Below, piece by piece: positions 3,274 to 59,007 of a stretch of DNA of 64,000 nt. Location of the stretch: positions 128,809-192,808 of the forward strand of contig CAWGXL010000011.1 of the NCBI GenBank assembly GCA_963826535.1. The letters are read 5' to 3'. Source of the stretch: an uncultured bacterium (GTDB lineage: Bacteria > Patescibacteriota > Microgenomatia > Levybacterales > UBA12049). The notes under the pieces were generated by a model. The model was given only the letters and a program-made list of their open reading frames with translations, made no database searches and was not told the origin of the DNA. The position numbers were made by a program, and so were the translations under genes. Positions within the stretch are counted from its first letter, which is position 1. Each line of letters begins with the position of its first letter.

Positions 3274-3762
3274 ATGCCAGAACACAGTGAGGGCGTTCCA
3301 GTATCTGAAGAAGAATTCTCTCAGGAGATACTGAAAGAATCAGTAGGTCATTTAAAGGATAAATTTGAAATGCAATTTGAAACTTCTAGAATAAATAAAT
3401 ATGGAATTAGGATGGATAAATATAGAGGAAAGTCATCGATAGTGGATCCTAACTCTTTAAGCGTATATTATCAAAATGATCAAAATTTTCTTCGTATAGG
3501 TGAACCATTATGGAAGATAGATAAACCAAATAAAGATAGAGTGGAAATTTATAGAGTCAAAGGTAACATAACAGAAGGAATAATTATAGAAACAAGAGCG
3601 CCCTACTTAGTACAATATGAATATACACAGTTTAGCCATTACGATTTGAACTCTCCTAAAGCAAAAAGTGAGGTGGAGGAAAATGTACTGATTAAAAATA
3701 CCCAAGGCACTATTTTAAAGGCTGAGGGGTTAATCTCAGACATTCCCCAGGTTTTAAAATGA
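3274..3762 (+). CDS. hypothetical protein
   Basis: Clean 162-aa ORF directly after the preceding gene; no recognisable motif. Confidence 0.4.
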   Translation: MPEHSEGVPVSEEEFSQEILKESVGHLKDKFEMQFETSRINKYGIRMDKYRGKSSIVDPNSLSVYYQNDQNFLRIGEPLWKIDKPNKDRVEIYRVKGNITEGIIIETRAPYLVQYEYTQFSHYDLNSPKAKSEVEENVLIKNTQGTILKAEGLISDIPQVLK

Positions 3763-3855
3763 TTTAAGTTTATCAAGGTTGAATCCATATATTTTGTGAC
3801 AATTGTAAAAGTCGCATTAGAAAATTAACACAACTTGCAATATTATGATGAAGAA

Positions 3856-4995
3856 TTATGGTGAAGGTTTTTTGGAAGTGATGTTGCTGCAGTTGCCTTT
3901 ATTTATTTCACAATCAACATATTTCTTAATTTCTGAATAGTTTCCATTACCTGCGGCCGGGATAAGTACCCATTGCATTCCATACTCATCTCTAGTCTGC
4001 GGTATCATAAGTAACCCGGCCCGGCCGGTTATACTATCTCCGGTATCCAGAATAGCGCTTTTAATTTTGGCTTCTTGTAACTTTTGGGTAAGTCTAATGA
4101 AGTCATCATATTCATCTTCCTTGATATCGCTTGCAACGCTATCCTTTACAACATTAATTAGATCTAAAGCTATGACTGGGTTAAGAAGTACATCTAGGGA
4201 AAATATTTTCTCTTTAAAAGCTTCAATTATTTTCTCCTGCCTAATCGAGCGGGCAAAATCAGATCCTTCCTGGCCAAGCGCGTGACGTGAACGAACATAT
4301 TTTAGTGCTGTTGTTCCATCCATAAGAGAGGAACCTTTATCAAAATGCAGATGTTCATACCTGCAAGGAAAAAACTCAGACTCGGTCGCACTACCTGTAG
4401 CAATTTGCGCTGAAAAGGAGGCAATATCTGTTTCATTAAATCCACAGGGGTCCACTTCTTTGCCGGTAACCGGATATGCGTAATCATCAAAAGCGCGATC
4501 AACTGTGACATCAAGTCCTCCAAGCTTATCAACCGCTTTTGTAAATCCATCAAAGTCAATTTTTATAGCATAATCAACATCCAAACCAAGTACTTTTCCG
4601 ACAATTGCCTTGGCCATTAATAATCCTCCACCTTTCTGCTCCATTTCTCCATAAGTATAGGCGGAGTTAATTTTTGCTTTAAGTTCAGGTGCCCAAAGAT
4701 CGCGCGGAATTGAAACAAGCAAGGCATTTTTAGTATTTGGATCAATGGTGGCAAAAATAATCGTATCGGTCAGATCAGGGCCCTCATGTACCCCGCCTCC
4801 AACACCTAGAAGAAGAACATTAATCCGTTTTTTTTCCGTCTGTTTTAATTCAATTTTATTGTTCGTAACTACCTGTACGCCTATTGAAAAATATTTCCAA
4901 GCCTTAACTCCTATTATTCCAAGAATCACTATAAAAAAAACAATTAACACCAAGACTCCCTTGTTTAAATTCTTTGAATTTCGTTGAGTTCGCAT
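3856..4995 (-). CDS. LytR-CpsA-Psr (LCP) family cell-envelope phosphotransferase
   Basis: N-terminal TM anchor followed by 'NVLLLGVGGG...DTIIFATIDPNTKNALLVSIPRDLW', the LCP-domain signature. Confidence 0.85.
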   Translation of the reverse strand: MRTQRNSKNLNKGVLVLIVFFIVILGIIGVKAWKYFSIGVQVVTNNKIELKQTEKKRINVLLLGVGGGVHEGPDLTDTIIFATIDPNTKNALLVSIPRDLWAPELKAKINSAYTYGEMEQKGGGLLMAKAIVGKVLGLDVDYAIKIDFDGFTKAVDKLGGLDVTVDRAFDDYAYPVTGKEVDPCGFNETDIASFSAQIATGSATESEFFPCRYEHLHFDKGSSLMDGTTALKYVRSRHALGQEGSDFARSIRQEKIIEAFKEKIFSLDVLLNPVIALDLINVVKDSVASDIKEDEYDDFIRLTQKLQEAKIKSAILDTGDSITGRAGLLMIPQTRDEYGMQWVLIPAAGNGNYSEIKKYVDCEINKGNCSNITSKKPSP

Positions 4996-9641: not shown

Positions 9642-9989
9642 TTATAAAAATACTTTCCCTATAATACTCTTCTTTTCTATCATACCAAATTTTCGGCTAT
9701 CAGTGCTTGCGTTTGTGTTATCTCCAGTGACAAAATATGTATTGTTTTCAATTTTTTGAATTCGTTTAATCAGTATCTTTCCATCGCGTGGATCTATAAG
9801 CGCAATAATATCAAATATTTGGGGATTTTTAAAAATGTAAGCAAACCTGTTAACCAACACCGTAGAGTTGTTTTGAAATGTTGGAACCATACTATTTCCT
9901 AAAATTCTAAATCTGTAAATAGGGGAAAAATTAAGAAAAAAAGCTCTAAACAGATTTTGTCTTCTTGAAGACAACATCGATTTCATCAA
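9642..9989 (-). CDS. sodX: S26-family signal-peptidase-like protease, putative Ni-SOD maturation protease
   Basis: 'GNSMVPTF' (catalytic Ser box) and 'GDNTNASTDSR' (box E) of type I signal peptidases. Immediately downstream of and overlapping sodN, as for SodX. Confidence 0.65.
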   Translation of the reverse strand: MMKSMLSSRRQNLFRAFFLNFSPIYRFRILGNSMVPTFQNNSTVLVNRFAYIFKNPQIFDIIALIDPRDGKILIKRIQKIENNTYFVTGDNTNASTDSRKFGMIEKKSIIGKVFL

Positions 9990-10362
9990 TAAGAGCTAGT
10001 AATTTTTGTGCATCAGCCGGATCTACCGATTTTTTTGTTTGCCCTGCTGCTTTTGTTGCCCGCCAAAAGAGATCATGCAACGCAGGAAATTTTATCACAT
10101 GTTCCGGTTTAAAATAGTCTGTCCAAAGTACCCAAAGGTGATGTTTTACCAATTCTGCCCGTTCTTCTTTAATAAGGATTGCGCGTATGCGGAATATTTC
10201 ATCCTTTGATTCCCGATACTTATTCATTGTATTGAGGATGCTTTCAGCTTCAATCTTTGCCTGAGCCGGATCATAAACGCCGCATGGCAAATCACAATGG
10301 GCGTAAGCTGTTTGGGTCGGAAGAAGATTTGCAAGAATCTGATAGAGCGTAAGTCTCATCAA
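9946..10362 (-). CDS. sodN: nickel-containing superoxide dismutase precursor
   Basis: Leader 'MMRLTLYQILANLLPTQTAYA' followed by 'HCDLPCGVYDPAQA', the Ni-hook motif exposed after leader cleavage. Confidence 0.85.
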   Translation of the reverse strand: MMRLTLYQILANLLPTQTAYAHCDLPCGVYDPAQAKIEAESILNTMNKYRESKDEIFRIRAILIKEERAELVKHHLWVLWTDYFKPEHVIKFPALHDLFWRATKAAGQTKKSVDPADAQKLLALIDEIDVVFKKTKSV

Positions 10363-38843: not shown

Positions 38844-39755
38844 ATGATTTTTCTTGAAAAATACGAACTCCTGAAAAAATCTATTCCTGTGGCGGCGCTT
38901 GTGCTTGGTAATTCGGTTGACTGTGAATATTCAGATTTTATAACTTTATGTAAGAATTGCTACTATTGTTTTGATGCGTCTTATATAGAAGACAGTATGT
39001 ATGTTGTCCTGGGAGCTTTTAATAAAAATCTTGTGGACTGTCTTGCCATGGCTGACTCTGAGAAATGTTATGGATGCGTAGAGTCTACTAAATGCCACAG
39101 TTCTACTTATTTATTACATTGTAATAATTGTACCGATTGTCATTTTTCATCGTATTTAAATGCTTGCTCTGATTGTTTTGGTTGTGTTGGTCTTAACCAT
39201 AAGAAGTATTGTATCTTCAACAAGCAATACTCCAAAGTAGAATACTTTAAGAAAATAGAAGAGCTGAAAAGTGAGAAACCAGAAAATCTTCTTGAGCAAA
39301 TGCGTAAACTCAAAAAACAAATACCACATCCTGCAACTTATCAATCTAATAGCGAAAATTGTCCGTTTGGAAATTACGTATATAATTCTAATAACTGTTA
39401 TTGGATCTTTAATACATTTTACTTTGAAAATTGCGGATATGCATATTACTCAGCAATTGCAAAGAACTGTTGGGATATGTATTGTTCAGGTGGAAGCAAA
39501 GAAGAAAACGGCATGACTGAAAAATGTTACGAGATGGTTGCTTCAAGGCCAAGTAACTATGAGTGCGCATATCAATTTATATCCCAATACTGTACGAATT
39601 GCTATTATGGCATTGATCTTAGAAATTGCTCCGACTGTTTTGGCTGCGTAGGACTGACCAATAAAAAATACTGTATTTTAAATAACCAATTGACCAAAGA
39701 ACGGTATGAAAATGCTGTTAAAGAAATCAAAAAAGAGCTTGGGTGGAAAGTTTAA
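38844..39755 (+). CDS. cysteine-rich repeat protein (about 32 Cys, internal duplication), paralog 1
   Basis: Repeated CxxC pairs. Each half ends 'NC[ST]DCFGCVGL..KKYCI.N.Q' followed by '...IKKELGW'. 303 aa. Confidence 0.6.
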   Translation: MIFLEKYELLKKSIPVAALVLGNSVDCEYSDFITLCKNCYYCFDASYIEDSMYVVLGAFNKNLVDCLAMADSEKCYGCVESTKCHSSTYLLHCNNCTDCHFSSYLNACSDCFGCVGLNHKKYCIFNKQYSKVEYFKKIEELKSEKPENLLEQMRKLKKQIPHPATYQSNSENCPFGNYVYNSNNCYWIFNTFYFENCGYAYYSAIAKNCWDMYCSGGSKEENGMTEKCYEMVASRPSNYECAYQFISQYCTNCYYGIDLRNCSDCFGCVGLTNKKYCILNNQLTKERYENAVKEIKKELGWKV

Positions 39756-39812: not shown

Positions 39813-40721
39813 ATGACCTTCTTTGATAAATTTGAACTCCTGAAAAAATCCATTCCTGTTCCGGCGGTGACGATTGTAGATACTGTGGATTGTGAATATG
39901 TAGATGGCGTCTATCTAAGCAAAAATTGTTACTTTTGTTTCGTTTGCTTTGATCTTGAAGACGGTGCTTATAACACACTAGGATTCTATTGTAAAAAACT
40001 TGTAGATTGTGACGCAGTGGATGCGTCAGAGAAATGCTATGAAAGCATAAATTCTTCTAAATGTTACAATTCTACATATCTAATAGATTGTAATAGCTGT
40101 ACCGATTGTCATTTTTCAACATTTTTGATTTCTTGCACTGATTGTTTTGGATGTGTTGGATTAACTCATAAAAAATATTGTATCTTTAACAAACAGTTCT
40201 CCAAAGGAGAATACTTTAAGAGTGTAGAAGAATTAAAAAAAGAGAAGCCGGAAAAGATCCTGGCCAAAATGTTTAAACTGAAACAAACCATACCCCATCC
40301 TGCCAGCCAACAGTTTAACAATGAAAATTGTCCATATGGAGATTATATAATTGGCTCAAAGAACATGTATTGGAGTTTTAATAGTTATTATGGTGAAAAC
40401 TCCGGATATACATATGTTACAGGACTTATAAAAAACTGCTGGGATATATTATTGGGAGGGGGAAATCGAACTAAAAAAACTTATTCTGAGCGATGCTATG
40501 AACTTTCGTATTCAAACCATTGTTATAACTCCGCGTTTTTACAAGATTGTTTTGATTGCACCAATTGTTCTTATAATACATACCTAAGAAACTGTTCGGA
40601 TTGTTTTGGTTGTGTCGGGTTAACAAACAAAAAATACTGCATATTTAATAATCAGCTTACAAAAGAGCAGTATGGAAAAACCGTTAAAGTGATAAAAAAA
40701 GAGCTTGGGTGGAATTATTAG
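39813..40721 (+). CDS. cysteine-rich repeat protein, paralog 2 (tandem duplicate of 38844-39755)
   Basis: Same architecture and motifs as paralog 1 ('CTDCFGCVGLTHKKYCIFNKQ', 'CSDCFGCVGLTNKKYCIFNNQLTKEQY...IKKELGWNY'). 302 aa. Confidence 0.6.
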   Translation: MTFFDKFELLKKSIPVPAVTIVDTVDCEYVDGVYLSKNCYFCFVCFDLEDGAYNTLGFYCKKLVDCDAVDASEKCYESINSSKCYNSTYLIDCNSCTDCHFSTFLISCTDCFGCVGLTHKKYCIFNKQFSKGEYFKSVEELKKEKPEKILAKMFKLKQTIPHPASQQFNNENCPYGDYIIGSKNMYWSFNSYYGENSGYTYVTGLIKNCWDILLGGGNRTKKTYSERCYELSYSNHCYNSAFLQDCFDCTNCSYNTYLRNCSDCFGCVGLTNKKYCIFNNQLTKEQYGKTVKVIKKELGWNY

Positions 40722-42113
40722 TTATTAAAATGAGCAGCAAGCAAAAATTACAATCTATTAATCCTTCAAACTATCAAGCTCTAGGAACAGTTGATATTTC
40801 AACAGCTCAAGAGATTGAAGGAAAAGTTAAGCTTGCAAGAAGCGCGCAAAAGAAATGGGCTGATTTGGGTATTGCCAATAGAGTATCGGTTTTGAAAAAT
40901 GCTTTTGAAGATTTTAAAAAACAAAAAGAAATGTTTATTCTATTGCAGTCAAGAGAGATGGGAATGCCCGTTAACGAATCTCTTATTGATTTTAATTCAA
41001 CCATTGATTATGCAAATTGGAATTTTGAAAATGCAGAAAAGTATTTAAGGCCTGAAACCACTTTTGAAAATGAGCGCGAAATCCACCAAGTTTTTCATGA
41101 ACCCATCGGCGTTTCGGCAGCTATTGTTCCTTGGAATTTTCCTTTCGCAAATTTTGTATGGGGCACTCTTCAAAGTTTAATCGCCGGCAATACAGTTGTT
41201 TTCAAACATTCCGAAGGAATGTCCGTTATGTGGAAAATTCATAGATGAGATTTTTACTAAGCACTTACCCAAAGGAGTTTTTAATGAGGTGTATGGAGGC
41301 GGAGAAGTTGGAAATTCACTAGTTAATCAAAACATTAATATGATTGCTTTTACGGGGAGCACTAAGACCGGAAAGAAGATATATGAGATAGCAGGAAAGA
41401 AATTCATAAAAGCAGTAATGGAGTTAGGTGGATCTGCGCCTGGCGTAGTATTTGAGGATGCCGATCTTGATTTAGCTGTTGGGAATATCTGCTTCAATAG
41501 GTTACTTAATCAGGGGCAATGTTGCGATGGGTTAAAACGCCTTATCGTGCATGAAAGTATATTTGATGAAGTTGTGAAAAAAGTTGCTACTACTTTTTCA
41601 GCTAAAAAGGTAGGAAACGCTACAGACAAGCATACTGAAGTCGGCCCACTTGTTGCGAAAAGACAACTTGAATTGCTTATTTCTCAGGTTGAAGACGCAA
41701 AGACAAAAGGCGCAAAAGTGATTACGGGTGGCAATTCACTTGAAGACAAACTAGGCGGCGCGTTTTTTGAGCCAACAGTATTAACAGGTATTACAAACGA
41801 CATGCGGGTCTGGAATGAAGAAGTGTTTGGTCCGGTTTTGCCAATTGTAAAATTTAAAACCGAACAAGAAGCAATTGAGCTTGCCAATCAGACGGTTTAT
41901 GGCTTAGGTTCGTATGTGTTTACAAACGATAAAGATAAAGCAGAGAGAGTAACAAGCGCGATTGAATCCGGCATGGTGAGCGTCAATGGCACAAATTATA
42001 TTATGCCGTTTAATCCATTTGGAGGCTACAAAAATTCCGGAATTGGAAGAGAACATGGTAGATATGGGTTTGACGTAGTGACGCAGATAAAGATTATTGC
42101 TAAAAATAAATAA
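40709..42113 (+). pseudogene. aldehyde dehydrogenase family, interrupted by +1 frameshift near 41215
   Basis: Two overlapping ORFs (40709-41248 and 41196-42113) together span a full ALDH ('GNTVVFKHSE' | 'ECPLCGKF...', catalytic 'GQCCDG', 'ELGGSAP'). One extra base in 'CCGAAGGAATG'. Confidence 0.7.
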
Positions 42114-43784: not shown

Positions 43785-44651
43785 TCACTTCTTTTTTCTT
43801 GGTAATTTTTTGAGGACCAAAGCACCAGCTACACCAAGCAGTGATACTCCAAGTACTGCTGTGCCAATAATTAATAAATGCCTTTGGGGATCTTCCGCTT
43901 CACGATTATTAGAATCAAAGATAGCATCATTTCTGATATCCACATAGGATTGAGATATAAACCCGTTTTCATCTTTAATTTGTAGTGCGGGTGAGACATA
44001 GTTTAACAGTAGATATTTATGCCCAGTAGTAACCTGTTTACCTGTTTTCCCGTCTCCGAAATCCCAAAGGTATTCAATGATCTTGGACGTTGGAGCTATT
44101 GATTCAGAGGCGTCTAATACCAGATTGTTATTTAGGTTTATATCTAAACTCACCTTAGTTGGATCGTCAATTTTTTTACCGTTTACCTTTATCACCGCCT
44201 TCGGGAGTTGATAATTTTTATCGGGAATGATATTTAACTGAACAGATTCTATCAACTGAACAGGAATACTGGAATCAAATTCAGTGTTGATAGTCAATAT
44301 ATAAGAGCCTTTTTTTTTATACTGATGGGTATTTTTCAAGCCTTGGGCTTTTGTTCCGTCTCCGAAATCCCAGGAAAACTTAGTTTGGTTAATTATCTCC
44401 TCTGTAACGGCTTGTTTGAGTAAAGTTGTATCTATTTCAAATGTAATTGGCTGATTTACAAGGAAGTTATCCGAAGAAATATCCTGGGGCACTGTGAAGT
44501 TTGTAGGGTAAATCTCAACTGTTTGCAATAGAGATTCGTTAGGCAGCTCACCATTGATTTTGAAAAATGGAGGCAGACCCGCGCCATGAGCCTCAACAGC
44601 TTGAGGGAACATACATAGCAACAAGAATGCAAAAATGAGAGACTTCATCAT
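43785..44651 (-). CDS. exported PKD-domain protein with C-terminal TM anchor (start revised to MMKSL)
   Basis: Signal peptide '...FPQAVEA|HGAG', two PKD signatures 'WDFGDGTKAQG' and 'WDFGDGKTGKQ', C-terminal 'LLIIGTAVLGVSLLGVAGALVLKKLPRKKK'. The upstream part of the listed ORF is a terminator plus tandem repeat, not coding. Confidence 0.7.
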   Translation of the reverse strand: MMKSLIFAFLLLCMFPQAVEAHGAGLPPFFKINGELPNESLLQTVEIYPTNFTVPQDISSDNFLVNQPITFEIDTTLLKQAVTEEIINQTKFSWDFGDGTKAQGLKNTHQYKKKGSYILTINTEFDSSIPVQLIESVQLNIIPDKNYQLPKAVIKVNGKKIDDPTKVSLDINLNNNLVLDASESIAPTSKIIEYLWDFGDGKTGKQVTTGHKYLLLNYVSPALQIKDENGFISQSYVDIRNDAIFDSNNREAEDPQRHLLIIGTAVLGVSLLGVAGALVLKKLPRKKK

Positions 44652-44687
44652 ATAGCTATTGTACCAAATATAGCTATTGTACCAAAA
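44652..44687. repeat. 18-bp tandem direct repeat (ATAGCTATTGTACCAAAT x2) in the 5' leader of the PKD gene
   Basis: Two adjacent copies between the upstream terminator and the ATG. Each contains TACAAT (minus strand: TTGGTACAATAGCTAT). Confidence 0.5.
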
Positions 44688-44688
44688 A

Positions 44689-44713
44689 GGGCGGTTGTTA
44701 CACCGCCCTCTCT
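44689..44713 (-). terminator. intrinsic terminator of the YcnI-like gene
   Basis: Stem GGGCGGT / ACCGCCC with a 6-nt loop followed by T5 on the minus strand, about 55 nt after the stop at 44767. Confidence 0.5.
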
Positions 44714-44766
44714 TTTGTCCCGATTGAATCGAGATTGCTCTAAGTATTAATTGTGCATGCTTTGCT

Positions 44767-45450
44767 TTATCTTTTCTTTCGCGTTTGCATCCACAAAGAA
44801 ACACCTGCTCCAACCAGCGCTAATACGCTTAGGATTAAAGGTAAATTGTTTTGTGTTGAACCCTCTACTGCTGCAGTATTTGCAGATGCACCAGGACCAG
44901 GCGCGGCAGAAAGGTCATTTCTGACATTAGTCACAGAAAATGGATTAGGAGCATTTTCATCATGCTCACCTTCTATATGAGGATTATTTTTTGCATATTC
45001 CTCAACCGTTTTTGCGTCCTTATCCCATGCGACTACTTCTCCGCTACCATAAGTTTGGTATGCCAACCAGTTTAAGGATGTTTCCTCTGCCGGAGCTTGA
45101 GCACTAAAAACAAATTCATCTCTTTGTTCAGCAGGAATACTTCCTCCTGACCAAATGATTTCTGTAACTTTAGCGTCCTCTCCAACACCTGCCTTTTTAA
45201 GTTGTATTGTCCAACCCGGCTTAACATTAGGTCTGACGCTCTGTAATCCTTCCGGAATAAGAAGTCTTAAACCAATAGTAGGAGTGTCTTCTTCAGTGGG
45301 CACACTGACAACAAAGTTGGTACGCTGCGCAACCCCAACCTCGCTTGGTCTTACAACCACATGCGCCAATGCGGGTGCAGCACTTAGGCTTAATCCCATT
45401 ATGGTAACAAGCACTACGCTAATATATTTTTTAATATTCATATAAATCAC
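44767..45450 (-). CDS. YcnI-like (DUF1775) copper-binding exported protein with C-terminal TM anchor
   Basis: Signal peptide ending 'APALA|HVVVRPSE' (N-terminal His), 'FVVSVPTEED' block, C-terminal 'LPLILSVLALVGAGVSLWMQTRKKR'. Confidence 0.6.
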   Translation of the reverse strand: MIYMNIKKYISVVLVTIMGLSLSAAPALAHVVVRPSEVGVAQRTNFVVSVPTEEDTPTIGLRLLIPEGLQSVRPNVKPGWTIQLKKAGVGEDAKVTEIIWSGGSIPAEQRDEFVFSAQAPAEETSLNWLAYQTYGSGEVVAWDKDAKTVEEYAKNNPHIEGEHDENAPNPFSVTNVRNDLSAAPGPGASANTAAVEGSTQNNLPLILSVLALVGAGVSLWMQTRKKR

Positions 45451-45531
45451 CTCCTTTCATTATGGACTAGGCAATAATTTGCCAGTAAACGAATACTTAG
45501 AGCTGGACCTGCCTGCCGGCAGGCAGGAAAA

Positions 45532-45897
45532 TTAAGAGAAAACAGGAGGTGATCTATTGTTTACCGAAGGGGTAAATAGGAACGGACGAAAAACATTAGG
45601 ATTATTTTCACTTTCCTGAACAAAAGTAACACTAGTAAAAACTTCAAACGGAACTGTGGTATCGCTAATTTGGGGTATACAGCAAGGATGGTGCTCCTTG
45701 GAATCTGCTGTTTGGTGATGATAGGCAAATGTTAACTTAGCAGGATTTAAGTGGATTGCAGTAAAAACAACAAGAAGCGTAATGACTAATACTTGAAACT
45801 TTGATAAATTTAAAAGTTTATCTTTAAGAAGAATTATGAAAGCTAAGACTAAGGGAGTAAAAATTAGAAGATAATGTGCTAAATGATCATGCTCCAT
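45532..45897 (-). CDS. small membrane protein
   Basis: Two to three hydrophobic helices; His-rich N-terminus 'MEHDHLAHY'. Confidence 0.4.
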   Translation of the reverse strand: MEHDHLAHYLLIFTPLVLAFIILLKDKLLNLSKFQVLVITLLVVFTAIHLNPAKLTFAYHHQTADSKEHHPCCIPQISDTTVPFEVFTSVTFVQESENNPNVFRPFLFTPSVNNRSPPVFS

Positions 45898-45898
45898 A

Positions 45899-46369
45899 TT
45901 ATTTTTTTGCTGTACTTTTTATGCCTTTTTTAATAACAACCCAAATTAAAAGTGCGACTGCTAAAAAGCCGACTGAGATATGAAAAATATGCGTTAAAAC
46001 CCAGTTATTAATTTCAGGTTGGGCAGGTGCGGTTTGTTCTGCTGCTGTTTGTAAATTCTCGGATATTCTTTCTACCCGTAAGTCATATTCTAGCGTAAAA
46101 TCATTGAAAGCTCCAGGAGAATTAGGCTTCCCTACAATTCTTACTTTATAAACATCTCTTTGCGGAAATGTAAAGGACAGGCTGGCATTTGAAAGAGAAG
46201 GATTGGTATTATTAGAAAAAAGCTGCTGACTAAAAATTTCTTTTCCTGATTGCAAAATAGAAATAGTGCAATCGCAGTCAACAGGCTTAAATTTATTTTC
46301 TTTATCTTTAAACTCAAAGTAGAAATCACTTTGTTCACCAGCAATTGGATCATCTTCTGGGGGTAACAT
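45899..46369 (-). CDS. hypothetical protein with C-terminal TM anchor
   Basis: 156 aa with C-terminal 'ISVGFLAVALLIWVVIKK'. Adjacent to the metal-handling genes. Confidence 0.4.
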   Translation of the reverse strand: MLPPEDDPIAGEQSDFYFEFKDKENKFKPVDCDCTISILQSGKEIFSQQLFSNNTNPSLSNASLSFTFPQRDVYKVRIVGKPNSPGAFNDFTLEYDLRVERISENLQTAAEQTAPAQPEINNWVLTHIFHISVGFLAVALLIWVVIKKGIKSTAKK

Positions 46370-46584
46370 GCATCACCGCCCCTACTGAACCACTTGCTTT
46401 TAGTACATGAGCGTAAGCGGCATTGGAAGAAGTAAAAAGGATAAATACTAACAAAAATGAAGCTAAGATATGTATCATAAACCTTACCTAATAAAGATAT
46501 TCTACTGGATTTGGGCTGTAAAGTCAGCTGGTAATGCTGTGCATCCGGCTATGGTAACTGTTCACAAGTCTAACATGAAATTGT

Positions 46585-46659
46585 CATCGCGATCCCGATT
46601 TAATCGGGAGTGGCGATCTTTAAAGATTGCTTCGCTACGCTCGCAATGACAAAATCGTA
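46585..46659. mobile_element. MITE-like palindromic element, copy 3 (subfamily A, short, inverted relative to copy 1)
   Basis: TIRs TTGTCATCGCGA / TCGCAATGACAA. Hairpin TCCCGATTTAATCGGGA. The reverse complement aligns to copy 1 apart from an internal deletion of about 45 nt. Confidence 0.5.
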
Positions 46660-46722
46660 TCAGAACCGTGAACTGTTACCGGTTATGCAGGAGCTTGACT
46701 TTAAATATATATCTGGTGTATT

Positions 46723-47319
46723 TTGTATATAGCTATGACTTTAAAGTCAACTTTCAAGATTTTTCTCCCACTCGCAATACTCCTTTTTGTCTTTCCATCA
46801 CCCGCACACGCTCATCTTATGGGAGGAAATGGAATTGTCAGCGGCTTGACTCATCCATTAATTGGTATCGACCACCTACTGGCAATGGTAGCTGTGGGAA
46901 TAATTAGCACACAAATTAAAGCCCGGACAATTTGGATTGTTCCTGCGGCTTTTATATGTTTCATGCTGGTTGGCGGGATACTTGCTATGAGTGTTGGTAT
47001 ACCGTTTATTGAAATAGGAATCGCATTATCTGTGCTTGTTTTAGGGATTGCAATAGCAATGGCACAAAAGTTTTCTCTTGGAATAGTCATAGCATGTGTT
47101 GCTTTTTTTGGGCTGTTTCATGGGCACGCACATGGTGGAGAAATGCCATTAATTGCTCATCCGGCATTGTATGCATCAGGCTTTGTGCTCTCCACAATAT
47201 TTCTACATTTTATGGGAGTATTGTTAGGACTTTACGCCCGTAGAACAAATTTGATGCTTAGAATGTTAAGGTTATCCGGGGCGGCAATAAGTATGGCCGG
47301 TGTCTTCTTCCTGTTATAA
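46723..47319 (+). CDS. hupE: HupE/UreJ-family Ni/Co transporter
   Basis: Signal peptide '...SPAHA|HLMGG', 'GIDHLLAMVAVG' and C-terminal 'HGHAHG', typical of HupE/UreJ. Confidence 0.8.
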   Translation: MYIAMTLKSTFKIFLPLAILLFVFPSPAHAHLMGGNGIVSGLTHPLIGIDHLLAMVAVGIISTQIKARTIWIVPAAFICFMLVGGILAMSVGIPFIEIGIALSVLVLGIAIAMAQKFSLGIVIACVAFFGLFHGHAHGGEMPLIAHPALYASGFVLSTIFLHFMGVLLGLYARRTNLMLRMLRLSGAAISMAGVFFLL

Positions 47320-47356
47320 GTGGTTTTATTTTACTCATGTTACGCAATATCTTCCT

Positions 47357-47423
47357 CGTCATTCCTGCGAAAGCAGGAATCTTTTTAATGAAATTTCTGG
47401 ATTCCCGCCTGCGCGGGAATGAC
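47357..47423. mobile_element. MITE-like palindromic element, copy 4 (subfamily B, short)
   Basis: TIRs CGTCATTCC / GGAATGACG. Hairpins ATTCCTGCGaaaGCAGGAAT and ATTCCCGCctgcGCGGGAAT. Same TTTACTCAT.TTA.GCA left flank as copy 2. Confidence 0.5.
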
Positions 47424-47439
47424 GGTGCGTAAAGTGATT

Positions 47440-49008
47440 TTATTCTAAACTGATAGTAAAATCAGCGGTAAATAATTTATTGTCAGGATTAAACTCCGCA
47501 AAAACTCTATAAATACCGGGCTTTATTGGTCCGTATAAACCTAAAGGCAGGAACTTCACATCAGGACCACCGTTTTCGCTTGGTTTTGGAGCTACCAGAT
47601 TTGCAGGATGAACATGTAAATAATCATAGGTTTTCTGATTGATCATGACTAAATGACCGAATGAAGCGAGGTATGGCTTGAGTGTTGTAATAGGTTGTTT
47701 TGAAAAAGCATCTTTGATTGTAAAGGTAAGCTCCTGTTGGCCAACAGATAGTAGTTGCGCTTTGAGGGGTTTGGGGTAATTCAAGGTAACTTCATAATTT
47801 CCAAAAGTTTTTGAAAGAGCACTATCAGGCTGTGCATTTGAAACTGTTGTATTCACTACATTCCCAACATTTAGAGTAAAAGCAAATTGTTGCTCAATTG
47901 CACCTAGCGGCTGGAAGCCTTTGTAGAGATGATATATACCTATCTTGGGAAATTGTGTTGTGATATTAAACTCACTTGCGTTTTGTGCCGGGTGGATGTG
48001 ATTGAAATAATTTAACTCGCTATCAACGATGATAAGGTGACTAGGCCTTTCATATACTCTCGCGAATAGATTGACCCGGTTTCCGCTGGCAGCATCATAT
48101 ACCTTAAAAGTAAGCGGCACATCCTGGTTTGGCCTTACAATTTCCGGGTGGTCAAAATCAACTGTGAAGCGTCTTGTTTTATCTCCTTTGAGTCCGGGAA
48201 TATTTGGAAGACTATTAGATCCTAAATTTGAGTTGCCAAGCTGAGCTTGTTTGGCAATTTGAATATGTTGTGCATGTATTCCAAGAGATGATAGAGAATC
48301 CTTAGGAATTAGAGTCAGAAAAAAATAAGATGCAACAATCCCTATAACTAACGCAAAACTTATTCCAAACTGTGGAGCAAAGACAAGTTTCTTTTGCAAA
48401 AAAGCATCAAAACGCAGTGCTTCTAGTGCTAAAAGAAACATTAAAGCGATAAAAAGAATTTGAGGAATTAAGGTAGATAAATCATAAAAATGTGTCCCTA
48501 ACATTAAAGCGTGAATCAGGATAAAAACACCGGCTAAGTAGACAAAGCGATGGAGAAGTTTCCATCTTGGAAATGTCAATTTTGCAATAAAAGCGTCGAA
48601 GGAAGTTAAAGCCATAAGAAAAAGAATAATAAGTGCTATAAAACTTAGAGTTATAGCAAGCAGATATTTATCGCTTAAAAAGCCTAGCCCTTGAAAACCT
48701 CCCAGTTGGCCGAAAAATGACAGAAGCGCATGGAGCAAACCAAAATAAAAAGCGGAGACACCAATTGCCCGACGAGCTTTTAAGAACTGATCCCGAAATG
48801 GAAATTTTTGAAAAGAAAAACATAACGGCCCGACTAGTAGAGCTAAATATAAAAACGCAAGCGCTGTAAGAGCATAGATTTGCTGAAGACGGATTAGCTG
48901 TGTTTGCTCAGAGGAAGAAGTTGAAGTCACCCAGTAATAAACTCCAAGAGAGAATATCAAGCTAAAAACTATTACATAAAATCGTATATTCTTTAATAAA
49001 GAATCCAT
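47440..49008 (-). CDS. membrane protein: N-terminal ferric-reductase-like (di-heme b) TM domain plus C-terminal duplicated His-rich extracytoplasmic domain
   Basis: TM helices carrying paired His ('LLHALLSF', 'LLHRFVYLAGVFILIHALML'). The C-terminal half has two repeats, each with 'HxHP' ('FNHIHPAQ', 'YLHVHPAN') and a 'GIY' block. Confidence 0.45.
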   Translation of the reverse strand: MDSLLKNIRFYVIVFSLIFSLGVYYWVTSTSSSEQTQLIRLQQIYALTALAFLYLALLVGPLCFSFQKFPFRDQFLKARRAIGVSAFYFGLLHALLSFFGQLGGFQGLGFLSDKYLLAITLSFIALIILFLMALTSFDAFIAKLTFPRWKLLHRFVYLAGVFILIHALMLGTHFYDLSTLIPQILFIALMFLLALEALRFDAFLQKKLVFAPQFGISFALVIGIVASYFFLTLIPKDSLSSLGIHAQHIQIAKQAQLGNSNLGSNSLPNIPGLKGDKTRRFTVDFDHPEIVRPNQDVPLTFKVYDAASGNRVNLFARVYERPSHLIIVDSELNYFNHIHPAQNASEFNITTQFPKIGIYHLYKGFQPLGAIEQQFAFTLNVGNVVNTTVSNAQPDSALSKTFGNYEVTLNYPKPLKAQLLSVGQQELTFTIKDAFSKQPITTLKPYLASFGHLVMINQKTYDYLHVHPANLVAPKPSENGGPDVKFLPLGLYGPIKPGIYRVFAEFNPDNKLFTADFTISLE

Positions 49009-49605: not shown

Positions 49606-49881
49606 ATGCAGACAGTTATACACATAAAAGCGGACAGAGAGGTTAAAGAGAATGCTATGAGTGCAGCAAAAGAGCTTGGACTTACATTAAGCGATGTCAT
49701 AAATGCGGCACTGCGAAATTTCATCAGAACAAGAGAGGTTATTTTTACTTCGCGGCCGCGTATGACGCCGGAGCTTGAAAAGTTACTGAACAAGGTTGAG
49801 TCTGATATTAAAAGGAAAAGAAACCTTTTCGGACCTTTTACAAACTCTGAGGAGATTGACAAATTTCTTGATTCTCGATGA
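49606..49881 (+). CDS. dinJ: type II antitoxin, DinJ/RelB family
   Basis: N-terminal ribbon-helix-helix-like 'VIHIKADREVKENAMSAAKELGLTLSDVINAAL'. 4-bp overlap with the downstream toxin. Confidence 0.65.
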   Translation: MQTVIHIKADREVKENAMSAAKELGLTLSDVINAALRNFIRTREVIFTSRPRMTPELEKLLNKVESDIKRKRNLFGPFTNSEEIDKFLDSR

Positions 49882-50135
49882 AAGTTTATCTTCATAAAAG
49901 TTTTTTTAAGGGCTATAAAAGGCTAAACAAATCACAACAAAATAAATTTAAAGAAAGAAAAAATCTGTTTCTCCTAGACGAATATAATCCAATTCTCAAT
50001 AATCATTCTCTTACTGGCCAGTACAAAGGATACAAAAGCATAAATGTGAGCGGGGACTTACGAGCGATATTTAAACAGAATAAAGAAATCGTGATTTTTG
50101 TAGCGGTTGGCTCTCATAGTAAATTGTATGGCTGA
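49878..50135 (+). CDS. yafQ: type II toxin, YafQ/RelE family mRNA interferase
   Basis: 'SLTGQYKGYKSINVSGDLRAIFKQNKEIVIFVAVGSHSKLY' is the RelE/YafQ C-terminal signature. Confidence 0.65.
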   Translation: MKVYLHKSFFKGYKRLNKSQQNKFKERKNLFLLDEYNPILNNHSLTGQYKGYKSINVSGDLRAIFKQNKEIVIFVAVGSHSKLYG

Positions 50136-55962: not shown

Positions 55963-56394
55963 ATGAAAATGAGCTTTATTATTTATATAGTTATAGGGGC
56001 AATTATACTCGGCGGACTGTTCTTTGTTTTCAAACCGAAAACGCAAAATTCCATAACCCCAAATTCTCAAGTAACGACGGGAGAAAAAAAAGAATCAACA
56101 CGAAATGAGGTTACACCGCAGTCAAATAAAAAAACATTTGACTTAGCCATTAAAAATAAACAAATTGTTTCCGGTGAGCAAACTTTAAAGGTTAATCAAG
56201 AGGATGAAGTAACTATTATGATTACGTCAGATGTGGCGGATGAATTCCATCTTCATGCTTATGATAAGATTGTAAAGCTTGAGCCAAACATACAAGCGAC
56301 GCTCACCTTTACAGCAAATCTTTCCGGGAGGTATCCTTTTGAACTTGAGCAATCGGGAACAGAACTTGGTTTTTTGGAAGTACAACCGAAATGA
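55963..56394 (+). CDS. membrane-anchored cupredoxin-like protein
   Basis: N-terminal TM; C-terminal 'VTIMITSDVADEFHLHAYD' His-x-His and a beta-rich pattern. Confidence 0.4.
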   Translation: MKMSFIIYIVIGAIILGGLFFVFKPKTQNSITPNSQVTTGEKKESTRNEVTPQSNKKTFDLAIKNKQIVSGEQTLKVNQEDEVTIMITSDVADEFHLHAYDKIVKLEPNIQATLTFTANLSGRYPFELEQSGTELGFLEVQPK

Positions 56395-56400
56395 TTGTAA

Positions 56401-57792
56401 ATGATAAAAGTAATTTCAGTTTTAATCACTCTTTTACTCCCCTTTATCTTCCCTAATGCAACTTCAGCTCATGCATTTGGCCAATTGTACAATTTGCCTA
56501 TTCCTTTTTGGATGTATCTGTATGGAGGAGCAGCAGCAATTGTCGTCTCGTTTCTGATTATTGGCTTTTTTTTCAATAACAACATCAATCCGACTAATTA
56601 TCCAAAACGTGACATATCAAAAAATCTTTTTGTCCGATTTCTGAATGCGCGCAAAACTGTAGCTCTTCTTAAAGTATTAAGCGTTTTTCTTCTTTTCCTG
56701 ACGATTATTTCAGGATTTATTGGAACAAATAGATCAACTGCAAATTTTAATATGACATTTTTTTGGATTATCTTTGTTCTTGGTCTTATGTACTTTACTG
56801 CGCTTTTTGGTAATGTTTGGGCAATTCTCAATCCATTGAAAATTATAGCTGACAAAGCTGAAACTTTATGGCCAAAGCTTATTAAAGGTAATACTAAGTA
56901 TCCTGAGAAACTCGGATATTATCCGGCTTTGCTATTATATTTCATCTTTATATGGATCGAGCTATTTTTTGGCACCACCCCTTTTTCACTTTCCTTTCTG
57001 ATTTTATATTATTTTGTTTTTAACATTTATGGTGTGCTTGTTTTTGGTAAAAAAGATTGGTTTAAGTATGGTGAATTTTTTAGTGTTCTCCTGCGTTTAA
57101 TCGGAAAAATTGCTTTATTTGAAAATGACAAAGGGGTGGTGTACGCGCGACCACCGTTTGTTGGTCTTTTGAAAGGTAAAGCGGAACAATTAAGCTTGCT
57201 CTTTTTTATAATCTTTATGCTTTCATCAACTGCTTTTGATGGGTTTCATAATACGCAAATATTTTATGATTTAATACCTGTAAATGTGAACTCCTATCTA
57301 CTTTCCCAGACAATAGGCTTAGCTTTTTCTCTAGTTTTCTTTTTACTTATATACTTAATTCTTATGTTTCTTGCAAAATTAATAACTAAGAGCGCAATTC
57401 CATTAAGAAATTTAGCATTACAATTTTCATTTTCTCTTATCCCAATTGCTTTAGTTTATAATATCGCTCATTATTATACTTTGCTCCTTACCCAAGGGCA
57501 GACTATAATTCGACTCATATCGGATCCATTTGGATTTGGTTGGGATTTATTTCACTCTGCAGGTTATGAAATAAATTATGCGGTTATTGATATGAACTTC
57601 ATTTGGCATTCTCAAATAGCATTTATTCTTGTAGGTCATATCGCTGCTGTTTATATCGCACATATTATTGCACTTCGGACTTTCCCAACACATAAAAAAG
57701 CCTTACTTAGCCAAATACCAATGCTTATATTAATGGTAGTCTATACTATGATAGGACTTTGGATTTTGGCTCAACAAGTTACAAACGGATAA
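56401..57792 (+). CDS. polytopic membrane protein with cleavable signal and predicted N-terminal His
   Basis: Signal peptide '...PNATSA|HAFGQLYNLPIPFWMYLYGG'. More than 10 TM helices. Confidence 0.5.
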   Translation: MIKVISVLITLLLPFIFPNATSAHAFGQLYNLPIPFWMYLYGGAAAIVVSFLIIGFFFNNNINPTNYPKRDISKNLFVRFLNARKTVALLKVLSVFLLFLTIISGFIGTNRSTANFNMTFFWIIFVLGLMYFTALFGNVWAILNPLKIIADKAETLWPKLIKGNTKYPEKLGYYPALLLYFIFIWIELFFGTTPFSLSFLILYYFVFNIYGVLVFGKKDWFKYGEFFSVLLRLIGKIALFENDKGVVYARPPFVGLLKGKAEQLSLLFFIIFMLSSTAFDGFHNTQIFYDLIPVNVNSYLLSQTIGLAFSLVFFLLIYLILMFLAKLITKSAIPLRNLALQFSFSLIPIALVYNIAHYYTLLLTQGQTIIRLISDPFGFGWDLFHSAGYEINYAVIDMNFIWHSQIAFILVGHIAAVYIAHIIALRTFPTHKKALLSQIPMLILMVVYTMIGLWILAQQVTNG

Positions 57793-58427
57793 TAATGAAA
57801 GTTTTAATACTCATTTTTCTTGCCATTTTTTGCTTCTGTTTCTTAGTACATCCTGCTGATGCGCATATTAATGGTCAATCAGTTTTTAAAATTAACGGAA
57901 GAAATACAATAGTTGAACCGGTTAAAAACTTACGCTCCATAGATGAACTTCAGGATATAGCTCCTGAAGAGCATGGAATAAATCAAACCTTAACATTTGA
58001 GGTAGAAATTGCAAAATACCCGACCCCAAAGAATATATTTGAAAGGACAAATTTCATATGGGATTTCGCCGATGGAACAGGAAAACAAACAATTAAGTAT
58101 GGGTTCAAGAATACCCACATTTACAGTAAAGAAGGACAATATCTAATAACTGTTTATGCTGACTATAAATCAGCAGGTTTTACCCTTGAACCGCAATTAT
58201 TACAATCGGTAATAATACACATCAATTCTAAAATATTACAAGGGAAATCAGAGCAAAATACATTATCACAAACTGTACAAAATACACAAAATAAACAAGA
58301 AGGATTATCACAATTATTTCTGTATTTATTTCCGGCAATCATAGTTGGAATTGGAATTTATATTTATTTTTTCTTAATAAGAAAATCCAAAAGGCGTAAA
58401 AAAGTAACAAATAGAAAGTCCACCTGA
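57759..58427 (+). CDS. exported PKD-domain protein with C-terminal TM anchor (paralog of 43785-44651)
   Basis: Signal peptide '...HPADA|HINGQSVFKING', 'WDFADGTGKQ', and 'KNTHIYSKEGQYLITVY' versus 'KNTHQYKKKGSYILTIN' in the paralog. Confidence 0.65.
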   Translation: MDFGSTSYKRIIMKVLILIFLAIFCFCFLVHPADAHINGQSVFKINGRNTIVEPVKNLRSIDELQDIAPEEHGINQTLTFEVEIAKYPTPKNIFERTNFIWDFADGTGKQTIKYGFKNTHIYSKEGQYLITVYADYKSAGFTLEPQLLQSVIIHINSKILQGKSEQNTLSQTVQNTQNKQEGLSQLFLYLFPAIIVGIGIYIYFFLIRKSKRRKKVTNRKST

Positions 58428-58446
58428 TATTGCGTAAAGTTAACCT

Positions 58447-59007
58447 ATGAAATTGTTCACGTTTTTATTTATCAGTTTTTTTATTTTTATGTTCTTTACT
58501 TATTCAAGCTACGCACATTCCGGTGGGGGGTTAATTGGAGATTATGTTGTTTCATTTACACAAGAACCATTATCACCATTAGTCGGCGATTTTGTAAAAG
58601 TAACGATTACGATAAATGACAAAAACGGACAACCTGTTACTGATCTAAAAGGAAAACTTCTTATAAAACAATTAATCGTAAAACAATATGTCGGGAAAGA
58701 ATCCGATCAGGACTATAATGAGATATTTAGTAAGCAGGAAAAGACTGGCCTAAATGGGAATATTGCTCTTGAATATAAATTTCAGGAAGAAGCAGTATAT
58801 GATGTAGAGTTTCATTGGGGTGAGGATGAAGAAACGCAAAGTACAGGTATGCAGATACAACCTAGAAATCAATCTTCATTTTTTTCTCCTACGAGTGCGA
58901 TAGAAAATATCTGGCTTCTTGTAGGCGTAGCGACAACAGGAGTTATCATAGGCGCAATCGGCACGTCAATTTTACTAACCACAACACTTCATCCTAAAAG
59001 GTTGTAA
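58447..59007 (+). CDS. exported protein with N-terminal His and C-terminal TM anchor (YtkA/FixH-like fold?)
   Basis: Signal peptide '...YSSYA|HSGGGLIGDYVVSF', C-terminal 'LLVGVATTGVIIGAIGTSILL'. Confidence 0.45.
   Translation: MKLFTFLFISFFIFMFFTYSSYAHSGGGLIGDYVVSFTQEPLSPLVGDFVKVTITINDKNGQPVTDLKGKLLIKQLIVKQYVGKESDQDYNEIFSKQEKTGLNGNIALEYKFQEEAVYDVEFHWGEDEETQSTGMQIQPRNQSSFFSPTSAIENIWLLVGVATTGVIIGAIGTSILLTTTLHPKRL

Follow-up and report, generated by a model that had tools for sequence, protein, structure and literature searches.

A conserved Patescibacteria gene cassette joining an MsrQ/STEAP-class membrane reductase to histidine-first exported proteins, a candidate module for extracytoplasmic copper handling

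A 64,000-nucleotide stretch of contig CAWGXL010000011.1 from an uncultured Levybacterales bacterium (the window; positions are counted from its first letter) carries, at 43785-49008, a cassette that links a membrane reductase of 522 amino acids (FRD522) to exported proteins whose mature forms are predicted to begin with histidine. The cassette is conserved in Patescibacteria (Candidate Phyla Radiation, CPR), and we lean, with modest confidence, towards the reading that it is an extracytoplasmic copper capture, reduction and relay module on the outside of the cytoplasmic membrane. Copper is favoured because of the predicted Cu(II) ligands of the YcnI-like protein, the YtkA, HMBD and cupredoxin context of the outer domains, the presence of a reductase, and the CxC and CC soft-ligand motifs. 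The original prediction, which was made from the letters of the window, described a nickel or copper acquisition locus with reductive metal uptake. A metal-handling unit with His-first exported proteins is retained here, as is the reductive step, which is assigned to an MsrQ/STEAP-type reductase; nickel is less likely, and the metal is probably copper, to which most of the metal-specific evidence points.

Gene order and conservation of the cassette

The region holds six genes, five of which lie on the minus strand, while hupE lies on the plus strand between FRD522 and rep4 (Table 1). All the open reading frames (ORFs) described earlier lie exactly where they had been placed, and their families (PKD, YcnI-like, HupE and the 522-aa protein) are backed by Pfam. 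These four genes are real, but two further cassette genes had been overlooked, namely the frameshifted rep4 and a small membrane protein with an HPCC motif. The window is AT-rich (G+C ~0.38), and the nearest homologues of its proteins are found in Patescibacteria/CPR (Curtissbacteria, Daviesbacteria, Saccharimonadales and 'Patescibacteria group').

The cassette was compared across 76 related loci, 72 of which came from a metagenome scan with the FRD522 family, in addition to L001, L002, L154 and L155. The recurrent order on one strand is FRD522, rep4, the small CC protein (in part of the loci), the YcnI-like protein and the PKD protein; the four-gene order lies on one strand in L001 and L002 and in metagenome loci. 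rep4 is the next gene after FRD522 in 54 of the 59 loci with at least 700 bp of downstream sequence. Where at least 3 kb follow FRD522 (23 loci), rep4 is present in 20, the PKD gene in 19, the YcnI-like gene in 14 and all three in 12. The best-conserved member is FRD522 (50-66% identity). The cluster was rightly regarded as a unit, since its gene order is conserved across the related loci and does not reflect a chance neighbourhood.

The exception is hupE, which had been counted as a member of the cluster. It is a regular HupE/UreJ protein with a signal peptide and an N-terminal His, and it matches HupE_UreJ (PF04955) over the full length. However, it lies on the opposite strand with its own terminator-like hairpin (47361-47380), and a HupE homologue occurs in none of the 23 loci with at least 3 kb downstream of FRD522 and in none of all the related loci examined. 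We therefore take hupE for a neighbour in this genome only, not a component; as a separate Ni/Co permease, it probably feeds the nickel superoxide dismutase (NiSOD) encoded 34 kb away.

Several proteins join cassette domains in a single polypeptide. The natural fusion P0437 (787 aa) contains PKD, Ferric_reduct and YtkA-like domains. In P0418 (809 aa), the N-terminal PKD domain is the sole Pfam match (neither Ferric_reduct nor YtkA was matched) and the C-terminal tandem domain was recognized from a phmmer match. P0104 (L153, 8001-9479), which is not adjacent to a cassette, joins a PKD domain to a membrane domain of the DsbD_2 family that contains the motif LHALTPGHGKG and a loop rich in His. 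An apparent rep4-PKD fusion in L134 is a read-through that retains the PKD signal peptide and, as a single case, was not used as evidence. No cassette protein has a CopC or CopD match in Pfam, and neither family appeared in the neighbour clustering of the related loci.

The membrane reductase FRD522 and its outer domains

FRD522 combines, as proposed, a ferric-reductase-like transmembrane (TM) domain with a duplicated domain bearing HxHP motifs (HIHP at 337-340 and HVHP at 465-468). The AlphaFold2 (AF2) model (predicted local distance difference test, pLDDT, 86.9) contains six TM helices and then a seventh (216-233), which places the rest of the protein outside; the linker that follows is of low confidence and contains an invariant IHxQHI helix. 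Among the 77 homologues, H93 and H166 are each invariant (77/77), R79 is kept in 71, R80 in 69, W149 in at least 90%, and H153 in 66, with Gln in its place in 5. These positions line up with the haem ligands (His91/His164) and the residues of the flavin mononucleotide (FMN) pocket (Arg77, Arg78, Trp147 and His151) of E. coli MsrQ, in which the position of His151 corresponds to a Gln in STEAP (PMC12525009). The MsrQ/STEAP class is defined by an outer haem His pair and by an Arg in place of the first canonical haem His (PMC3591440, PMC12525009), and a weak alignment with STEAP1 puts the His residues of FRD522 at the same places. The invariant bis-His pair and the flavin-pocket residues thus assign the membrane domain, as judged from its sequence, to the single-haem plus flavin class and not to the di-haem one. 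The original label of a di-haem reductase is not sustained: NOX/FRE-type di-haem proteins have four canonical haem His, two in TM3 and two in TM5, whereas FRD522 has one invariant bis-His pair, its TM3 has H93 alone with the first His replaced by Arg, and H153 is not invariant.

FRD522 shares with STEAP and MsrQ (YedZ) the six TM helices, the predicted single outer haem, the Arg for the first haem His and the flavin pocket. STEAPs act on extracellular Fe(III) and Cu(II), which they reduce. In contrast to STEAP2-4, FRD522 has no cytoplasmic oxidoreductase domain; in contrast to MsrQ, it has no MsrP partner; and it differs from both in the seventh TM helix and in two extracytoplasmic domains with putative metal sites. 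An assignment to MsrQ proper was rejected, since the NCBIfam MsrQ match (E=7e-9) reaches 35.4 bits against a cut-off of 130 and neighbour clustering found no MsrP-like gene in any related locus. A profile search with FRD522 against PDB sequences gave weak STEAP matches only. In L155, a gene for an NADPH-dependent FMN reductase (3496-4062, minus strand) is divergent from the adjoining cassette; by analogy with Fre, which serves MsrQ, this single case is a possible cytoplasmic electron donor.

In the AF2 model, the outer part of FRD522 folds into two Ig-like sandwiches (281-381 and 399-521), each of which has one His on one strand and HxHP on the next. The triads H324/H337/H339 and H452/H465/H467 are invariant in all 77 homologues, and we read these H...HxHP arrangements in the model as putative three-His metal sites. 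Foldseek with this model against the PDB returned generic tandem Ig/FnIII folds and no metal-protein match. A phmmer search with residues 237-522 against 1.84 billion representatives gave 2390 matches (886 below 1e-10), many of them without a reductase fusion. Among 67 non-FRD relatives, HMBD is present in 13, Pfam YtkA in 13 (best E=9.3e-9), Cupredoxin_1 in 4, PKD in 2 and a c-type cytochrome domain in 1. The outer domains of FRD522 itself have no Pfam match, even at E<=10; the link to YtkA therefore rests on the relatives, and the domains appear to be distant members of the YtkA-like group. YtkA/CtaK takes part in CuA centre assembly, and a YtkA domain also forms the end of YcnJ, the copper importer that is partnered by YcnI (PMC12362106, PMC13344008).

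Histidine-first proteins of the cassette and of a second module

Cleavage sites were judged by a rule-based signal-peptide check, by the conservation of the site among homologues and by the onset of conservation. Cleavage (marked by a slash) is predicted at MMKSLIFAFLLLCMFPQAVEA/HGAG in the PKD protein, at ...SAAPALA/HVVV in the YcnI-like protein and at ...SPAHA/HLMGG in HupE; the Sec-type anatomy and the AxA/H-type site of all three agree with the earlier proposal that cleavage between Ala and His would leave His as the first residue. In the rule-based check, these three have a basic n-region (K/R), and the repaired rep4 has no K/R in its n-region. A hydrophobic core (mean Kyte-Doolittle value of 2.5-3.2 over 10 residues) is present in all four exported proteins, as are A or V at -3 and A at -1 (VEA/H, ALA/H, AHA/H and AYA/H).

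The His is also kept by the homologues, as had been anticipated. In the anchored homologue sets, Ala at -1 and His at +1 are found in 53/53 rep4 and 25/25 YcnI-like sequences, while the PKD family alignment (n=109) has Ala at -1 in 107 and His at +1 in 97, with Asn in 11 and Asp in 1. The 11 sequences with Asn form one subclade ('ANGAGLPPFF'). The frequency of the top residue rises from ~0.3 in the signal peptides to ~0.7 from +1 on, with the step exactly at the predicted site. In a crude scan of the 67 non-overlapping ORFs of the window, all those with a convincing Sec signal peptide and an AxA site have His at +1, which is far from chance and arises because the window holds two modules of such proteins. 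The mature N-terminal His of B. subtilis YcnI has been shown experimentally (PMC8424229). The pro-peptide end of the sodN product (TAYA/HCDLPCG) shares the AxA/H look of Sec substrates.

The YcnI-like protein matches DUF1775 (PF07987) with 81.9 bits against a cut-off of 25, ends in a C-terminal TM anchor and aligns from His1 with B. subtilis YcnI (PDB 7ME6/7MEK; E=2.5e-11). In that protein, His and Glu are the Cu(II) ligands, Trp is a cation-pi partner, and the dissociation constant (Kd) is ~2 nM (PMC8424229). Equivalents of Glu50 and Trp137 together with His1 are found in the window protein and in 27/27 CPR copies. The YcnI-like protein thus carries what would be the complete mono-histidine-brace Cu(II) ligand set and is predicted to bind the ion.

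The PKD protein begins with an extension (VEA/HGAGLPPFFKING), followed by two PKD-type sandwiches and a C-terminal TM anchor, and has 237 homologues; with 35-50% identity it is less conserved than FRD522. A locus search based on the PKD protein was dominated by the generic WDFGDG pattern, and of the loci that it gave, L001-L004 alone are true family members. Its AF2 model (pLDDT 92.6) comprises the signal helix, the extension, two ordinary PKD sandwiches and the C-terminal TM helix; the extension, from His22, has a pLDDT of ~72 and adds a short strand (residues 30-32). With this model, Foldseek found the PKD domains of ColG, ColH and PrtV (TM-score of 0.8-0.9 on the target), and the search of the PDB returned PKD folds only and no metal-protein match. 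The near-invariant Asp57 ('LPQD') is the best candidate for a second ligand beside His22. Upstream of the PKD gene, a promoter-like site (44685-44658) and a hairpin (44688-44709) separate it from the YcnI-like gene. It had been suggested that this N-terminal-His family has no assigned function; indeed, the database names are only 'PKD domain-containing protein' or 'hypothetical', and a literature search on the family found no paper.

rep4 encodes an exported, beta-rich and C-terminally anchored protein with the mature start AYA/HVLKASGSVGAVMHVTPEDDP... In the window, an ATG at 46478, upstream of a 156-aa ORF (45899-46369), opens MIHILASFLLVFILFTSSNAAYA/HVLKASGSVGAVMHVTP and the frame then meets a stop; if the run of five C at 46359-46363 is shortened by one, a rep4 of 192 aa is restored. 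The deposited genome annotation has only the 156-aa stump (P0241). The gene is intact in 60/60 copies of the related loci, which share H-[IV]-L-x6-G-A-V-L-H-I-D-P-E-D-D-P, and the alignment has H1, G10, H14, P17, D19, P21 and C45-x-C47 as invariant residues. At a distance of 5 kb, an aldehyde dehydrogenase gene (40709-42113, plus strand) likewise falls into two overlapping ORFs because of one surplus G near 41215 (VVFKHSE/ECPLCG). The 60 intact homologues and this nearby split gene speak against programmed frameshifting in rep4, which was rejected; we consider an assembly indel more likely than a recent pseudogene, because a second conserved gene within 5 kb also carries a one-base indel.

rep4 has no significant match in Pfam, NCBIfam or the PDB sequences; its best Pfam match, Ig-like_KY, is below threshold (E=0.0014), and a PDB profile search gave chance Ig matches. 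An identity with CopC was rejected, since rep4 has no CopC match and its invariant set (H1, H14, D19 and CxC) differs from the Cu(II) site of CopC (His1 and D-x-H). Comparisons by hhalign revealed no relation to FRD522 (5.6% probability) or to the Ig-like protein Ig186 described below. The small protein of 121 aa contains two TM helices together with a conserved HPCC[IAM]PQ motif and a C-terminal NN[KR]SPP. In L112 and L120, a fusion joins it to the end of rep4, after the anchor, and the CC motif is thereby placed outside the membrane.

A second set of proteins with an N-terminal His, module B, lies seven kb downstream of the cassette (55963-59007, plus strand; Table 1). Its order is repeated in L003, where genes for VKOR, a DsbA-like protein and a ZIP transporter lie upstream, and in L156, which has DsbB and a DsbA-like protein. 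Two partners thus recur beside the PKD/N-terminal-His family: in the cassette the reductase, and in module B the 463-aa membrane protein, which is a candidate for the permease that the cassette lacks.

Table 1. Features of the cassette, of module B and of the nickel and stress genes in the window and in related loci (a slash marks predicted cleavage)
Feature	Locus	Position	Strand	Basis or remark
PKD protein	window	43785-44651	-	Pfam PKD_4 E=2e-18
YcnI-like DUF1775 protein	window	44767-45441	-	Pfam DUF1775 E=7.8e-23
Small 121-aa membrane protein with HPCC motif	window	45532-45897	-	conserved motifs
rep4, frameshifted	window	45899-46478	-	sequence reading and intact homologues
hupE/ureJ-type Ni/Co permease	window	46723-47319	+	Pfam HupE_UreJ E=1.5e-50
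FRD522 (522-aa protein)	window	47440-49008	-	Pfam Ferric_reduct E=6.8e-10
Cupredoxin-like protein, 143 aa (module B)	window	55963-56394	+	DEFHLHAYD; Cupredoxin_1 E=4e-5, below cut-off
Polytopic membrane protein, 463 aa (module B)	window	56401-57792	+	TSA/HAFGQLY, mature start ...TSA/HAFGQLYNLPIP; without family match
One-domain PKD paralogue (module B)	window	57795-58427	+	ADA/HINGQSVFKING
Anchored Ig-like protein, Ig186 (module B)	window	58447-59007	+	SYA/HSGGG; weak YtkA-like profile match, hhalign 63% probability
sodN	window	9946-10362	-	HCDLPCGVY motif; Pfam Sod_Ni E=6e-42
sodX-type S26 peptidase	window	9642-9989	-	Peptidase_S26 E=4e-21; overlaps sodN 3' end
sodN near cassette	L112	4319-4735
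sodN near cassette	L116	11000-11512
sodN near cassette	L121	6983-7474
msrA near cassette	L002	5034-5552		diverse lineages (all five loci)
msrA near cassette	L082
msrA near cassette	L104
msrA near cassette	L109
msrA near cassette	L121

Intergenic palindromes lie within the cassette at 46553-46680 and 45508-45527. The CATTGCGAGCGTAGCGAAGCAATC palindrome has one copy in the window and near-perfect 13-nt inverted arms, GGTAACAGTTCAC and GTGAACAGTTACC, on its flanks, and the CCTGCCTGCCGGCAGGCAGG palindrome is located between the small CC gene and the YcnI-like gene; these small elements look like miniature inverted-repeat transposable elements or terminators. A RelB/YafQ toxin-antitoxin pair (49606-50135, plus strand) lies between the cassette and secA. 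Two adjoining paralogous 300-aa proteins on the other side (38844-39755 and 39813-40721, plus strand) are very rich in Cys-containing repeats and have no Pfam match.

Candidate roles and known relatives of the cassette

In the copper module that we favour, the tethered proteins would bind Cu(II) at the cell surface through their N-terminal amine and imidazole and pass it to the YtkA-like His sites of FRD522. The ion would be reduced to Cu(I) with electrons from a cytoplasmic flavin reductase, which would cross the membrane via FMN and haem b. The Cu(I) would then be delivered to thiol sites (the CxC of rep4 and the HPCC of the small protein), where it could serve for import or for the loading of extracytoplasmic copper proteins. 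A stricter form, which we put forward only tentatively, treats the cassette as a dedicated cupric reductase and relay in bacteria, in which a single-haem flavocytochrome would reduce Cu(II) held by His braces and pass Cu(I) to thiols. If true, Patescibacteria would have a previously unrecognised copper-uptake or copper-loading machine that is built from three or four undescribed families, drawn from rep4, the PKD/N-terminal-His protein, the small HPCC protein and the 463-aa protein of module B. In a wilder variant, the reductase would drive catalysis by the His-brace proteins on the host surface.

Histidine-brace chaperones that traffic copper outside the cytoplasm are known already, as are FRD-type metalloreductases, and the closest known arrangement is that of B. 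subtilis ycnKJI. Both have a membrane-anchored DUF1775 protein with a His/Glu/Trp mono-histidine brace (predicted for the cassette), extracytoplasmic domains of YtkA type, or in the cassette of a putative, distantly YtkA-like type, on a polytopic membrane protein, and further N-terminal-His sandwich proteins in the operon, in a Gram-positive-like envelope. With its YtkA-like outer domains and YcnI-like protein, the cassette therefore parallels ycnJI in the extracytoplasmic parts. However, it has neither a CopC nor a CopD domain nor a YcnK regulator; the position of the CopD permease of YcnJ is occupied by an MsrQ/STEAP-type haem/flavin conduit; neither rep4 nor the PKD protein belongs to the CopC family; and the YtkA-like domains come as a pair, each with an H...HxHP triad.

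The anglerases Ang-1 and Ang-2 are Ig-like His-first domains whose mono-histidine brace binds Cu (and Ni) and which are joined to HupE/UreJ-2 permeases (PMC12537917). The likeness to these proteins (Franco Cairo et al. 2025, PMC12537917) lies in the signal peptide followed by His, the Ig-like beta-sandwich, the mono-histidine-brace logic and the physical link with a membrane protein, as in P0104, a PKD relative fused to a permease-like domain. In contrast to the anglerases, the proteins of the window stand free, each held by a single C-terminal anchor, and are not HupE/UreJ-2 fusions; they have the PKD, DUF1775 and rep4 folds and a reductase as their partner; and P0104 is fused to DsbD_2, not HupE_UreJ_2. 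The hosts also differ, namely CPR for the cassette and Pseudomonadota or Actinomycetota for the anglerases. PDB 9GCE is not among the top 50 Foldseek matches of the PKD model, and the anglerase paper makes no mention of PKD, DUF1775 cassettes, ferric reductases or CPR (PMC12537917). The combination found in the cassette is undescribed, and likewise the rep4, PKD/N-terminal-His, HPCC and 463-aa families.

Several observations weigh against a copper module. The cassette contains no copper permease, CopC/CopD, CopZ/CopA or copper regulator, and as to copper enzymes, the window offers only the weak, sub-threshold cupredoxin-like match of module B (E=4e-5). The YtkA assignment of the outer domains comes via their relatives, and residue +1 is not His in 12 of the 109 PKD homologues. 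rep4 is frameshifted in this genome; the cassette may therefore not be fully functional here. Three further points concern nickel: hupE sits inside the cassette in this window, in P0104, a PKD relative, the fusion partner is a DsbD_2-type permease whose loop is rich in His, and sodN is found 0.3-3.3 kb from the cassette in 3 of the 28 longer loci. Finally, in 5 of these 28 loci msrA is no more than 4.5 kb from the cassette, and once it is in the operon, which suits a stress defence as well.

The last points bear on two alternatives, both of which we consider unlikely. In a nickel supply, the tethered His-first proteins would take up Ni(II) and hand it to a permease (HupE, or a DsbD_2-type one as in P0104) for the loading of NiSOD. 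Pfam DsbD_2, which we take to include UreH-type Ni permeases, makes P0104 a point in its favour, as does the position of hupE. sodN, to which the original prediction had tied the cassette, is real and is encoded in the window together with sodX, and NiSOD is the only nickel enzyme among the annotated ORFs of the window; however, it lies 34 kb from the cassette. The co-occurrence suggested earlier divides accordingly: hupE accompanies the cassette in no other locus, while the three occurrences of sodN exceed the ~0.3 expected in 269 kb of flank for a 0.9-Mb genome (Poisson P ~0.004) and come from lineages with 44-50% FRD identity among them (L112, L116 and L121). Ang-1, a similar N-terminal-His sandwich, binds Ni with a Kd of 220 nM and Cu with a Kd of 74 nM (PMC12537917). 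Nevertheless, a reductase is not required for the uptake of Ni(II), whereas no gene of the cassette is better conserved than the one for the reductase; the ligand set of YcnI is a characterised Cu(II) site; the outer domains occur in HMBD, cupredoxin and YtkA contexts; and P0104 is away from any cassette.

The second alternative, which we hold to be about as improbable, is a defence against oxidative stress, in which the MsrQ-like protein would export electrons to outer metal centres on its own domains or on the His-brace proteins; these centres would remove superoxide or peroxide, or maintain surface proteins in the reduced state, in parallel to MsrPQ. The MsrQ/STEAP signature of the membrane domain agrees with such a role, as do the msrA genes of diverse lineages (in L002, msrA overlaps the start of FRD522 on the same strand, and in L004, at 9717-10262, it adjoins a PKD gene), the three nearby sodN genes, and the DsbB or VKOR and DsbA-like genes beside the relatives of module B. 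However, the cassette has no MsrP or other known acceptor enzyme, its conserved residues resemble those of metal chaperones and form no known catalytic site, and the YcnI and YtkA relatives traffic copper. Stress and copper genes are often co-regulated, so the adjacency of msrA and sodN does not discriminate. A paper on APE1, copper and superoxide (PMC13254101) was set aside, the domain there being unrelated to the cassette proteins.

A surface oxidative system may also be considered, in which one or more N-terminal-His proteins would act like the copper oxygenases of the lytic polysaccharide monooxygenase (LPMO) type on host or environmental polymers, powered by the membrane reductase: the tethered PKD-domain protein has an N-terminal His, PKD domains often bind polymers, the transmembrane electron source is in the same operon and, in P0437, in the same polypeptide, CYBDOM proteins power LPMOs, and CPR bacteria live attached to hosts. 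We regard it as very improbable, since the PKD model consists of two ordinary sandwiches with a flexible extension, without an LPMO-like fold or flat face and without an LPMO among its top Foldseek matches, the protein has no conserved second brace His besides the structural PKD His109, His1 is replaced by Asn in 10% of the homologues, and the closest analogues, Ang-1 and Ang-2, have negligible oxidase activity (PMC12537917).

To our knowledge, bacterial copper acquisition and the reduction of Cu(II) before import are poorly understood, and few import systems are known (YcnJ/YcnI, CopCD and CuiT). The cassette that we favour as a copper module couples an electron conduit to domains of the copper-chaperone type and to three His-first proteins, sometimes in one polypeptide, and through this coupling the reduction step can be put directly to the test. 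The cassette also enlarges the small group of N-terminal-histidine metalloproteins by several undescribed families, and it is set apart from the nickel permease and the NiSOD, with which it is easily conflated. The ultra-small genomes of CPR bacteria thus retain a dedicated and well-conserved metal module.

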